From Escherichia coli (lineage in GTDB: Bacteria > Pseudomonadota > Gammaproteobacteria > Enterobacterales > Enterobacteriaceae), in the NCBI RefSeq assembly GCF_024502345.1, contig NZ_JALDNN010000001.1: a stretch of 64,000 bases of DNA. One strand, written 5' to 3'. Positions 57,387 through 62,760 of the stretch are shown one piece after another. The notes beneath the pieces were generated by a model that searched no databases, was not told the origin of the DNA, and saw only the letters and a program-made list of their open reading frames with translations. A program made the translations under genes and the position numbers. Position 1 is the stretch's first letter. Each line of letters opens with the position of its first letter.

Positions 57387-57592
57387 TTCATTTTCACTTT
57401 CTTAAATCTAACGACAGACGGCTAACATTTAAGTATTGTGAAATATTATCAAATGTAATCATCATTGATTTACAAAAGATACATTTTGCCCCGAAAGGAT
57501 TCCTGTCAGAAACATCAAAAGATGATGTTCTATACTGAGAACCATGGCAACACGGGCATCTAAAGTGAATATGGTTTGTAATATTTTCTACC

Positions 57593-57805
57593 TCAAAGTG
57601 CCACTACATGAACAGCCGCGGGGCCTTTAGGTCCGTTCTCAATACCAAATTCGACTTGCTGATTCTCAGTTAACGTTTTGAAATCGTTGCTCTGAATAGC
57701 TGAGAAATGGACAAACACATCTTTGCTACCATCTTTCGGCGTGATGAAACCAAAACCTTTTTCAGGGTTAAACCATTTCACTAAACCAGTCATTTTGTTA
57801 GACAT
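57593..57805 (-). CDS. cspI: Cold shock protein, CspI-like
   Basis: 70-aa [70 protein letters not shown]. Confidence 0.92.
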
Positions 57806-58174
57806 CATTATTACCTTTTGAAGAAGTGAGCCCTTGGGCAGAATGGTCCGAAAAAAAATATCAGAGAGAAAAACCAACAAGGAAATCTCAAGAGGTACAA
57901 ATAATAAAATTATAACAATGACTGCTTCAGATAATTTTGTAACAAACCAGAACACCATTAACGCATGATTAACCAACCATAGCAAGGATTACTTTTGTAA
58001 AGAAAAACACACGAATGAAACAATAGCTTTATTTATTAATAAAACGTGTCATTCTGTCTAATGACCTTTTATCTTACCCTTAAGATTTCAAGGATTTTGA
58101 CTCATGGAAGAGTCCTTTTTATTTAAATTTCACATTCAGCGCTAAAAATAATCCGATTTAATGTTAATCTACAT

Positions 58175-59301: not shown

Positions 59302-59574
59302 ATGGACAATAACACCATTTCTCTACAGGAGTTGCTCGACTGCATTTCAAAGCTTCGGGATGATGTAAATGCCCTCACTGTTGCATTTTCATATTTGGCC
59401 TTATCAATTCCCAGAGAACAAATGCAACCAACACTGGCATCGCTCCTGCTTGAATCACGCAACCCCAAATGGTCCCAGGAACAACAAAATTCTTTCAAGT
59501 GGCTGGCGGCATTACTGGAAGAAAAATATGCTGGTAAAATTACCATTTCGGTGGAGTCTTCAGAGAATCAGTAA
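59302..59574 (+). CDS. Hypothetical 90-aa protein on the opposite strand within the lysis cassette
   Basis: AGGA 7 nt upstream of the ATG; MDNNTISLQELLDCISKLRDDVNALTVAFSYLALSIPREQMQPTLASLLLE... Confidence 0.35.
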   Translation: MDNNTISLQELLDCISKLRDDVNALTVAFSYLALSIPREQMQPTLASLLLESRNPKWSQEQQNSFKWLAALLEEKYAGKITISVESSENQ

Positions 59575-59888: not shown

Positions 59889-60104
59889 TTACTCTCCCCG
59901 TGCAACCTTACGCTTGTCTTCTTTAATCTTGAAATAAAGGTTTGTCAGGTACGTCAGCAAGCCAAATACCAGACTACCCAGCACACCGATTGCAGCCCAC
60001 TGTGACGGAGTTACTTTATCGAGTAACTGCAATGCCCAGAAACCAGCATTACCAGCCGATGTGCCATAGGCGATACCTGTTGTTAACTTATCCATTGATT
60101 TCAT
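59889..60104 (-). CDS. Phage holin (EssQ/EssD type)
   Basis: 71-aa [71 protein letters not shown]. Confidence 0.88.
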
Positions 60105-60322
60105 ATCCTCACCCCGATGTACACAGATGGTGCAATATGTTTGAAAAGATCGGAGTCTATGGGGTAGTTTTTATAGCAAACGTTGTTCTCAACGGCGCTA
60201 AAAAACAGACACATTAAAAATGTGGGTAATTATTTTAAAAGAAAATCATATATTAAATAATAATACGAGATATGTTTTCATATTTAGTGTACTGTATACG
60301 GCCATTTATACAGGAAAAGCCT

Positions 60323-60493
60323 ATGTCAGAACGTAAAGACTCAAAATCACGCCGTAATTATCTCGTTAAATGTTCCTGCCCAAACTGCACCCAAGAGTCA
60401 GAACACAGTTTTTCAAGAGTACAAAAAGGTGCCCTTTTGATCTGCCCTCATTGCAACAAAGTATTCCAGACAAATCTTAAAGCTGTAGCTTGA
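60323..60493 (+). CDS. Small zinc-ribbon protein (56 aa)
   Basis: MSERKDSKSRRNYLVKCSCPNCTQESEHSFSRVQKGALLICPHCNKVFQTNLKAVA; CxCPNC...CPHC; AGGAAAAG RBS. Confidence 0.55.
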   Translation: MSERKDSKSRRNYLVKCSCPNCTQESEHSFSRVQKGALLICPHCNKVFQTNLKAVA

Positions 60494-60552: not shown

Positions 60553-60576
60553 AAAAAACCCGCCTGAGCGGGTTTA
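60553..60576. terminator. Bidirectional rho-independent terminator
   Basis: aaaaaacccgcctgagcgggttt. Confidence 0.7.
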
Positions 60577-60856
60577 ATATTGTGGTACTTTTTGTGGGAG
60601 TCATCCACTTACGCACTTTGTTTTGCTATGCCAGCAGTTAGCTTCTGCTGTAAAACTATTCATGCAGCAAACCTGCACTTCACCACAATGGTTAGCATAC
60701 TTTTCCTGATTAAGTTATTGCCAAATATGCTGGCCATTGTTTCATGTATTGGACCTCCTTACTCTTTATTAAAGAGATCCAATATTCACCACTCTGTCTG
60801 TATCTCCACTCAGGCATCAGCCTTCTTCGTTATCGTATACAGACAAACTATGAATT

Positions 60857-61072
60857 TTAATCAGTAATTATGACATTTGCTGCTGCAGGACCTTTAGCAC
60901 CACTCTCTACAGAGAAGGTAACCTTTTGACCTTCAAATAAGATTCGATAATTATCATTCTGAATCGCAGAAAAATGCACAAACACATCTTTACTACCATC
61001 AACAGGAGAAATAAAGCCAAAACCTTTATCAGCGTTAAACCATTTTACTAAACCAGTCATTTTATTTGACAT
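60857..61072 (-). CDS. cspB: Cold shock protein, CspB-like
   Basis: 71-aa [71 protein letters not shown]. Confidence 0.92.
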
Positions 61073-61372
61073 TCTACATTCCTTAACTTGAGCCTTTCGG
61101 CATAAATGGCTTGTATAACAGAAACGACTTCGTACTTAATTGGAGAGACTCAAAGAAGGAATAAGTGAATAACACCTGAAATGAGAACTGCTTTAGTAAA
61201 CTACTTCGTATATCGTCTGTTCTTCAAACCGACGCAATCATTAACGCATAGTTGAACATATGAAGCAATGTTTATTTTAGACATCCAGCCATCTTCAACC
61301 CCATCAAAAAACTATAGCTTTCTTCAGGAACGTGTGTATAGTGCGCCAAGTTATCAGTATTAAGGAATTTTT

Positions 61373-61585
61373 TTGTCCCGTAAAATGACAGGAATTCTCA
61401 AAACCTTTGACGGCAAAAGCGGCAAAGGTCTTATAACCCCATCCGATGGTCGTATCGATGTCCAGCTTCATGTTTCAGCGCTCAATCTCCGCGATGCAGA
61501 AGAAATTACCACCGGATTACGCGTGGAATTTTGCCGGATAAATGGTCTGCGTGGACCATCAGCTGCCAATGTTTACCTTTCATGA
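61373..61585 (+). CDS. cspF: Cold shock-like protein, CspF/CspH type
   Basis: 70-aa [70 protein letters not shown]. Confidence 0.88.
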
Positions 61586-61639: not shown

Positions 61640-61729
61640 ATGAATAAACCCGTCTGTCTTGATGACTGGTTGATTGGCTTTAAAAGCTTATGCTGTACTT
61701 TGACCTTAATAGCTCTGCTAATAATGTAA
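61640..61729 (+). CDS. Hypothetical 29-aa hydrophobic peptide
   Basis: [29 protein letters not shown]; GGAGAG SD 6 nt upstream. Confidence 0.3.
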
Positions 61730-61876
61730 TAAGCAGACTCATTGTATCTATGGACATTGTACTGGAAGAAAACATTTTAAACATCAGGCAAAAAACAAAG
61801 TCACCCGATAAATAATAAGTAAACTAACATGAATCCCGTAATGAGATTCAACATCTCTATTACCCTATTTAAAGCA

Positions 61877-61912
61877 CAAAAACCCGCTCATCAGCGGGTT
61901 TTCTACTTTTTC
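61877..61912 (+). terminator. Rho-independent terminator
   Basis: aacccgctcatcagcgggtt hairpin followed by a T run. Confidence 0.7.
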
Positions 61913-62007
61913 TTAACTTCGGGTATACAAAGCCCATCGTTGAAAAAATTTTATCCATATTTTTTGAAAAATGCAAGCATCACGTCGCCATCTTCGGCGA
62001 AAATCAC

Positions 62008-62760
62008 TTATCTCGTCACCTTTCTCAATTGTGCTTCAGCGTAAGATTCCTCCTGCCAGCACTTTGTAACCAGTTTATCAATGACATTTGCATATCCTTT
62101 ATACCACTGATAATCACTCAGGTCCGGTACCAGCTTCTGGACATGATGCCGCGCCAGTGTGGTTGGTAAACGACTAAACCGTTTTCCATTGCAACGCCCA
62201 CAAATCTTATAAACAGGTGTGCCATGAAGCCGGGTCCTTTTTTCATCCAAGACAATACCTTTACCCTTACACCCTCTGCACGCTGTGCTGACTTCTCCCT
62301 TACCATGGCAATGCTGACATAGTTCCTTCACCCACTCTTCTTTGATAACAGATTCCCCGCTTCTGGAGTGTTTCACCACTTCGCGCAATACATTATGAAA
62401 TCCAGTACCAGCACAATGCTCACAACGAGCCTTACTTGCCGCAGACCTGGAATAATCAGCAAAGGCAAAATTCACAAGGTAAGGAATAATCTGTAGCCGG
62501 GTTTCTTCACTCAATTTATTCAATGTCGGGTTATCCAGTGCCATCGCGTAATTGAGCAGACCTTCAATCGCAAACTGAGGATCCTGAACACCAACTTTTG
62601 CCAGGAATAAGGCAAACCCAAGCGGTGCTTTCGACTGCACCATCCCCTGCGCAGCCATCACATCCGTAATCGTTAAACCACCAGAGCCTGTCGCCGGTGC
62701 GTCATCACTCAATTTTGGAGATTTTGGGGAGTAATATTTTGGTAAGGCTTCAAGGTTCAT
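62008..62760 (-). CDS. Late-gene antiterminator Q (QuuQ/YdfT type)
   Basis: 250-aa ORF with Cys-rich zinc-finger-like segment CEHCAGTG...CQHCHGKGE...CRGCKGKG...CGRCNGK. Confidence 0.8.
   Translation of the reverse strand: MNLEALPKYYSPKSPKLSDDAPATGSGGLTITDVMAAQGMVQSKAPLGFALFLAKVGVQDPQFAIEGLLNYAMALDNPTLNKLSEETRLQIIPYLVNFAFADYSRSAASKARCEHCAGTGFHNVLREVVKHSRSGESVIKEEWVKELCQHCHGKGEVSTACRGCKGKGIVLDEKRTRLHGTPVYKICGRCNGKRFSRLPTTLARHHVQKLVPDLSDYQWYKGYANVIDKLVTKCWQEESYAEAQLRKVTR

Follow-up and report, generated by a model that had tools for sequence, protein, structure and literature searches.

The ynfU locus

A window of 64,000 nucleotides from Escherichia coli (assembly GCF_024502345.1, contig NZ_JALDNN010000001.1; one strand, coordinates counted from its first nucleotide) contains a short open reading frame (ORF) which a first-pass annotation, made from the sequence alone, had described as a small zinc-ribbon protein between a holin gene and cspB. 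The ORF has 56 codons and runs on the plus strand from an ATG at 60323 to a TGA at 60491–60493, with the product MSERKDSKSRRNYLVKCSCPNCTQESEHSFSRVQKGALLICPHCNKVFQTNLKAVA. It does lie where it was placed, with essQ on one side and cspB on the other, both on the minus strand (Table 1). With the start placed as far upstream as possible, at 60272, this frame would encode 73 residues; the 56-residue start is the one annotated in E. coli K-12, and is kept across genera.

The ORF is ynfU, a gene of Qin-type E. coli prophages that has been annotated before and whose product has been detected experimentally. The first-pass annotation had suggested that it might correspond to a small Qin protein that ribosome profiling had revealed in K-12, and had proposed a comparison with the K-12 small proteins. 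That comparison finds YnfU (b4776; Weaver et al., bioRxiv 10.1101/511675), to which the window protein is identical at 55 of 56 residues. The sole change is N6D, and no functional difference between the two proteins is expected. The surrounding DNA is 98% identical to K-12 over 781 nt. In the K-12 MG1655 record, ynfU lies inside the Qin cryptic prophage in the order essQ – ynfU – cspB – cspF – ynfS – ydfT(Q), which is also the order in the window. The window protein scores 107.7 bits against Pfam PF23499 'YnfU' (cut-off 27) and 79.8 bits against NCBIfam NF038384 'YnfU family zinc-binding protein' (cut-off 36). Membership of the family is thus indicated by both curated cut-offs, by orthology to b4776 in an equivalent locus, and by the conservation of two CPxC knuckles. 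RefSeq places the label 'ynfU: putative zinc-binding protein YnfU' on exactly the same ORF in 1652 of 5426 complete E. coli genomes. Exact matches to the window are prophages in other E. coli strains, at other chromosomal sites, for example in O55:H7 CB9615 and 2013C-4974.

The existence of the gene is therefore not new; EcoCyc/RefSeq, Pfam and NCBIfam have listed it since 2019, the year in which it was discovered. Weaver, Mohammad, Buskirk and Storz (2019) found ynfU by ribosome profiling of initiation complexes stalled with Onc112 or retapamulin, and confirmed the K-12 protein by western blotting of a chromosomal SPA-tagged version, whose level was the highest among the proteins newly identified in that work (10.1101/511675). 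They also remarked on the two CPxC zinc knuckles and on a threading match to PA0128 (10.1101/511675). In RiboReport, K-12 ynfU is fully covered by ribosome profiling (Ribo-seq) reads and has a translation initiation site (TIS) peak (10.1101/2021.06.08.447495), and PIRT-Seq recovered the gene independently (PMC12350097). The evidence for translation is thus that of the K-12 orthologue, and consists of TIS Ribo-seq, an SPA-tag western and PIRT-Seq; a lack of translation, which would have spoken against the first-pass description, is not what is seen. K-12 YnfU is well expressed at 37 °C in lysogeny broth (LB). Among the small proteins discovered recently in E. coli it is one of the most abundant. 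The literature searched, including searches for 'b4776' and for cold-shock small proteins, yielded no functional study of ynfU. A polymorphism between ynfU and cspB is reported in one paper, from a single population selected with silver nanoparticles and with no functional follow-up.

These results dispose of the alternative that the reading frame arose by chance or is a relic without function. The ORF is short, it lies in an AT-rich intergenic location, and it has no known phenotype, all of which would suit such an origin. However, translation in K-12 is seen by three independent methods, the median ratio of nonsynonymous to synonymous substitution rates (dN/dS) against the window ynfU is 0.093, and the ORF is intact in about 60 species (with an unchanged start in 62 species-representative genomes, wherever the contig allows). 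There are in addition the two curated families in Pfam and NCBIfam. The probability of a chance frame is negligible, and we regard it as excluded.

Table 1 Features of the ynfU region. Coordinates refer to the 64,000-nt window.
Feature	Coordinates	Strand	Evidence
essQ, class II holin, first gene of the lysis cassette, outside the ynfU unit	59889..60104	-	ORF, annotation
Conserved upstream block of ynfU: A-rich stretch, weak -35-like and -10-like elements, short leader	60256..60322	+	Right-justified comparison of 59 unique upstream regions
Shine-Dalgarno core AGGA, 7-nt spacer to ATG	60312..60315	+	Sequence; conservation of caGGAa
ynfU coding sequence (56 aa + TGA), C4 zinc-ribbon small protein (predicted fold)	60323..60493	+	ORF, K-12 identity, Pfam, NCBIfam, RefSeq
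Hairpin AAACCCGC-CTGA-GCGGGTTT, 8-bp G+C-rich stem, common to convergent ynfU and cspB	60556..60575	.	Terminator scan, minimum free energy fold
cspB, cold-shock-domain gene convergent with ynfU, second of the trio	60857..61072	-	ORF, RefSeq, Rfam RF01766
cspF, cold-shock-domain paralogue divergent from cspB, third of the trio	61373..61585	+	ORF, RefSeq
Q-type antiterminator (ydfT/quuQ)	62008..62760	-	ORF, annotation

Conserved residues and predicted fold

YnfU has five cysteines, C17, C19, C22, C41 and C44, four of which form the knuckles C19-P-x-C22 and C41-P-x-C44. The first-pass annotation had put the two cysteine pairs about 24 residues apart; this is the distance from C17 to C41, while the actual knuckles are separated by 19–22 residues. 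A family alignment of 45 sequences, reaching down to 30% identity, shows C19, P20, C22, C41 and C44 to be invariant, so that the loss of cysteines which would have argued against a zinc ribbon is not observed. C17 is conserved in the main YnfU clade only, and is therefore not a necessary ligand. In the same alignment a further nine residues (S26, E27, H28, S29, R32, K35, L39, P42 and F48) are either invariant or show at least 90% conservation. The segment between the knuckles, S26-E-H-S-F...R32...K35-G, is almost invariant in the family; the C-terminus is variable. The N-terminus is basic, as had been described, with six lysines or arginines among the first 16 residues, and the isoelectric point (pI) of the whole protein is 9.4.

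A structure was predicted using AlphaFold 2. A first run on 30 close homologues gave a predicted local distance difference test score (pLDDT) of 58.6, which was too poor, and was replaced by one using the 45-sequence alignment including the distant relatives. The resulting model has a mean pLDDT of 74.7, with 79–86 in the core. It contains strands at residues 14–18, 25–29, 38–40 and 47–49 with the knuckles in between, that is, two β-hairpins each with a CxxC knuckle at its turn, which is the arrangement of a four-strand zinc ribbon. The structural neighbours of the model are all zinc ribbons. On this model YnfU is a four-cysteine (C4) zinc-ribbon-type small protein, in agreement with the first-pass description. 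The C19/C22 and C41/C44 knuckles, carried on the two β-hairpins, would chelate one Zn2+ and so form the ribbon, preceded by the basic N-terminal tail, which is probably disordered. None of the fold and profile matches is diagnostic for function.

A protein with such a site might act mainly through its metal, as a zinc buffer, store or chaperone. Four invariant cysteines, a further cysteine (C17) that is nearly invariant in the main clade, the invariant-like H28 and a relatively high cellular level of the protein could all be read in this way. We consider it very improbable. One structural site per 56 residues makes a poor store, and the near-invariant residues that are not ligands (S26, E27, S29, R32, K35, L39 and F48) point instead to a specific binding surface. 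Inspection by eye of the region upstream of ynfU found no palindrome resembling a Zur box, and the neighbours of the gene are csp genes, not metal-homeostasis genes.

Association of ynfU with csp genes

In the window, the minus strand carries Q, cspB, essQ, ydfR, rrrQ and rzpQ. The orientation of ynfU is the opposite, against the Q-dependent late operon, and late transcription from Q would be expected to cross ynfU in antisense. Since it points against this operon, ynfU probably behaves as a moron, a piece of cargo expressed in the lysogen, rather than as a gene for lysis or late regulation. The genes for Shiga toxin (stx) in Stx phages are an example of such morons, situated between Q and the lysis genes of lambdoid prophages. 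ynfU occupies the same slot, and shares with morons its expression in the lysogen and probably also the possession of its own expression signals. It differs from the usual concept in being transcribed against the late operon, and in belonging to a cassette that is also found outside prophages and in another phage slot.

To place ynfU in a wider setting, 62 species loci from the Enterobacteriaceae were probed with the window's own proteins. A gene with a cold-shock domain (CSD) lies within 1.2 kb of ynfU in 45 of the 62 loci. As an internal control, just one further CSD hit was found at a distance of 1.2–4 kb. The commonest layout is that of the window, with ynfU, a convergent cspB-like gene and then a divergent cspF-like gene. 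Most of the loci have the convergent cspB-like gene downstream of ynfU, and in 26 a cspF-like gene follows, either after cspB or immediately behind ynfU. By contrast, probes for holin, lysozyme, YdfR or Q match only 5 of the 62. When the loci were clustered by their outer flanks they fell into 33 contexts, of which 22 have a CSD gene throughout, 3 are mixed and 8 have none. Because the linkage is seen across many different flanking contexts, the adjacency of ynfU and csp genes has been maintained, or has arisen anew, on many occasions. With about nine csp genes in E. coli, the chance of finding one beside ynfU by accident is less than 1%.

Outside Escherichia, ynfU is as a rule not part of a prophage. 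In Klebsiella the flanking genes are metabolic and a CSD gene follows ynfU immediately; in Enterobacter it is found among housekeeping genes. In Lelliottia it is situated between an ABC transporter and pgsA-uvrC, adjoining ynaE and a convergent CSD gene. A more distant YnfU relative, of about 40% identity, is divergent from a pair consisting of a CSD gene and a YmcF-like gene. YnaE (PF27475) and YmcF-like proteins (PF23641) are found beside ynfU and a CSD gene in chromosome that is not prophage (Lelliottia L007–L009, 4507–5679; L077–L079, 3265–4192). These two belong to the 'cold-shock islet' set of E. coli, and their presence points to a larger mobile set of small genes associated with cold shock.

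Within E. coli, the whole ynfU-cspB-cspF stretch is present in 1602 of the 1635 genomes carrying ynfU. The cspF-cspB part has a chromosomal paralogue, the cspH-cspG locus, which is 78% identical to it but has neither ynfU nor a relic of it in K-12; no ynfU paralogue or relic was found elsewhere in the 64-kb window. Among 50,697 phage records, 8 carry ynfU. Its place in E. coli lambdoid phages is the slot between Q and holin, and in a Klebsiella phage it is next to the holin without csp genes. In Escherichia phage PHB10 (MK524177, 4001–5125), the trio of ynfU, a cold-shock protein and a CspF-like gene lies between umuDC-like genes and the integrase. As the PHB10 trio adjoins the integrase and not the Q-holin slot, the three genes move together from one phage cargo slot to another.

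The new point of this analysis is therefore that ynfU travels as cargo in a small mobile cassette, ynfU-cspB-cspF, and is not specifically a gene of the lysis region. The cassette of ynfU, a cspB-like and a cspF-like gene occurs in many chromosomal contexts of the Enterobacteriaceae, and lambdoid phages have acquired it in at least two different slots. We have high confidence in the combined statement that the gene is ynfU, that its product belongs to the zinc-ribbon fold class, and that it is cargo of such a cassette.

This bears on the role that the first-pass annotation had named as frequent for small zinc-ribbon proteins of prophage late regions, namely that of a regulator or anti-host factor. 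In more general terms, YnfU could be a phage-directed late-region factor, regulating lysis or late transcription, or acting as an anti-host or superinfection-exclusion protein. In E. coli and some phages ynfU is in the classical slot between Q and holin, the Klebsiella phage has ynfU beside its holin without csp genes, and cargo in this slot is often of benefit to the lysogen. We nevertheless find no support for this role, and judge it improbable. The strand is opposite to that of the late operon. In most species ynfU is in ordinary chromosome beside csp genes and not lysis genes, and the lysis and Q probes match few loci; several loci are plainly non-prophage chromosome, and the gene is rare among phage records. 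No PHROGs family matches at E < 1e-3 (the best, of unknown function, has E = 0.0026), and none of the PADLOC defence models matches YnfU. Furthermore, the Qin prophage of K-12 is defective, yet YnfU is abundant in ordinary growth. The repeated linkage to csp genes in unrelated contexts shifts the expectation away from a prophage regulator or anti-host factor, and gives a modest lead to a possible connection with Csp proteins and cold adaptation.

Expression signals

The upstream regions of ynfU (59 unique species sequences) were compared by aligning them at their right-hand ends. Conservation extends from about −67 to −1, and farther upstream the sequences are unrelated between genera. The conserved block contains an A-rich stretch, a weak −35-like element GAGATA (60267–60272), and a −10-like element GTGTACTGT (60287–60295), for which the family consensus is gtGTAtGGT. 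The Shine-Dalgarno element caGGAa is among its most conserved positions. The ribosome-binding site had been described as strong; an AGGA core with a 7-nt spacer is adequate and conserved, but ordinary rather than exceptional. We infer that the block is ynfU's own promoter, with hexamers that are weak or unconfirmed, followed by a leader of about 20 nt.

Other candidate signals were considered and rejected. A generic sigma-70 scan was uninformative, with 7 sites compared with 5.2 expected from shuffled sequences. The AT-rich sites that it picks upstream of ynfU (60234–60264) show no conservation in other genera. An inverted repeat CTGTATA-N8-TATACAG (60292–60313) overlaps the Shine-Dalgarno sequence. 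As a regulatory hairpin it is discounted by its z-score of −1.1 and by the lack of conservation outside Escherichia. As a LexA box it has the wrong spacing, judged by eye, with N14 between CTGT and ACAG. No cspA-type leader or cold box (Rfam RF01766) was found at ynfU, and the short leader has no significant fold (z = −1.1). Lacking this leader, and being well expressed at 37 °C, ynfU is not a classical cold-shock gene.

A hairpin that begins 62 nt past the stop codon is shared with the convergent cspB. The first-pass annotation had spoken of a clean terminator. The hairpin is indeed there, and is present in the minimum free energy fold of the plus-strand RNA, but the terminator scan recognises it solely on the minus strand, with the tail TTTATTATCT; the plus-strand tail is AATATTGTG, which is a poor U-tract. 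The same design, of an A-tract, a CCCGC stem and a T-tract, recurs with differing loops in the Citrobacter, Raoultella, Klebsiella and Superficieibacter loci. It is probably a bidirectional intrinsic terminator, and on its sequence the stronger one for cspB. With its own conserved upstream block and Shine-Dalgarno sequence, and the hairpin shared with cspB, ynfU would constitute an autonomous transcription unit.

The interval of about 280 nt between the shared hairpin and the cspB stop codon (60576–60856), which forms the cspB 3' region, is approximately 97% identical to K-12 and contains a second terminator-like site (60662–60678, minus strand). The spacing between ynfU and cspB in other genera ranges from 107 to 411 nt.

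Related proteins and possible function

A homologue search with YnfU gave 49 clusters, essentially all from the Enterobacteriaceae. A profile search of 1.84 billion representative sequences gave only 43 hits, all within the YnfU family, from which we conclude that the family is small and narrow. A profile search of the PDB gave nothing significant. The best relative by sequence, other than the family itself, is the N-terminal zinc ribbon of PhnA/YjdM (PF08274; PA0128, PDB 2akl). Both are C4 ribbons of about 30 residues, and a similarity to PA0128 was also given by Weaver et al. (10.1101/511675). The match of YnfU (22.4 bits) is below the cut-off of 30.8, as are those of 34 of the 45 family members, and in the PDB profile search PA0128 has E = 1.1. 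YnfU also differs in being a stand-alone protein that lacks the C-terminal domain of PhnA. The function of PhnA/YjdM is itself unclear, and the similarity therefore explains little about YnfU.

A second resemblance is to the DNL-type zinc finger (Tim15/Zim17/Hep1; PF05180), in the spacing of the knuckles, an S-x-H and a K-G between them, and an L-I before the second knuckle. The DNL-type structure 2e2z gives E = 0.031. This likeness provides a possible model for an alternative in which YnfU, as a small modulator, binds to a larger protein of the host, and its linkage to csp genes reflects only co-transfer. Binding to a larger protein is the usual role of bacterial micro-proteins, and Tim15/Hep1, a DNL-type finger that escorts Hsp70, would serve as an example. 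The matches that would support it are, however, below significance. Against zf-DNL, YnfU scores 13.4 bits with a cut-off of 27; the D-N-L after the second knuckle is missing, in a C-terminal segment that is variable; and the DNL fingers are eukaryotic organellar proteins, unlike YnfU. No partner is known, and the basic tail and high pI suit nucleic-acid binding at least as well. As the target of YnfU a larger protein is our second choice, and a doubtful one.

A third resemblance, which is weak, is to the archaeal HVO_2753-type zinc-finger micro-proteins (PDB 6ydh, 9o17_AZ, 9fhl_C), several of which have been seen on archaeal ribosomes. Finally, the Com-type zinc-finger translational activators of phage Mu may be considered functional analogues, being small basic zinc fingers that bind RNA. 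The Com family is absent both from the best 25 of the 31 sub-threshold Pfam matches and from a family-wide scan, and the analogy is a lead only.

On the basis of these observations, we propose that the ribbon, stabilised by zinc, would serve as a binding module, in which the invariant face between the knuckles and the basic tail would contact a macromolecule of the host. As target we tentatively favour RNA or the ribosome, where YnfU would share in the physiology of the Csp RNA chaperones encoded next to it, while recognising that this falls short of an even chance. The preference is based on the charge of the protein, on these Csp neighbours, and on the weak resemblance to ribosome-bound zinc micro-proteins. 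A more specific version of this idea, which is speculative and rather unlikely, is that YnfU is a dedicated partner of CspB/CspF-type proteins, the trio being a mobile module for the remodelling of RNA or ribosomes under stress. YnfU would then be a zinc-ribbon factor binding RNA or the ribosome, analogous to the ribosome-bound archaeal zinc-finger micro-proteins, and the module would have spread among the Enterobacteriaceae partly by means of lambdoid phages.

Several observations weigh against a shared function of YnfU and the Csp proteins, and against parts of the picture on which it is built. A CSD neighbour is missing in 17 of the 62 loci (8 contexts) and in three distant YnfU subgroups, so a Csp partnership cannot be obligatory for YnfU. 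The gene lacks a cspA-type leader or cold box, and it is expressed well at 37 °C. The linkage could have arisen from co-transfer, or from retention as prophage cargo, rather than from a shared function. The functioning of the ynfU promoter and of the terminator on the plus strand is inferred. The literature searched contains neither an experiment that assigns a function nor a measurement of zinc in YnfU, and the annotations say 'putative'. In view of the loci without a CSD neighbour, and of the abundance of YnfU at 37 °C, a functional link between YnfU and Csp is a lead and not a result.

Other features of the window

Full-length matches to the cspA thermoregulator (Rfam RF01766) are found at two places in the window: at 60794–61233 (minus strand, 152.8 bits), over cspB, and at 57566–57963 (minus strand, 112.5 bits), at a cspI-like gene that lies downstream of the lysis cassette. 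Two csp leaders of the cold-inducible type are therefore present in the prophage. Just downstream of Q, a sub-threshold match to the Rfam Phe_leader (61873–61966, minus strand, 25.2 bits, E = 0.76) lies at the position expected for the lambdoid pR'/tR' leader, and is probably only a resemblance in the form of a hairpin followed by a U-tract.

Two further short ORFs are worth noting. An ORF of 90 codons (59302–59574, plus strand) is antisense to ydfR and overlaps its 3' end. It corresponds to the hypothetical protein WP_001315200 in a related strain, where an IS66-family element, absent from the window, is inserted between it and rrrQ. An ORF of 29 codons (61640–61729, plus strand) begins 55 nt past cspF; its counterpart in strain 2013C-4974 is described in RefSeq only as a 'hypothetical protein', and its product is identical at 25 of 29 residues to K-12 YnfS (b4750), which is encoded in the same cassette region.
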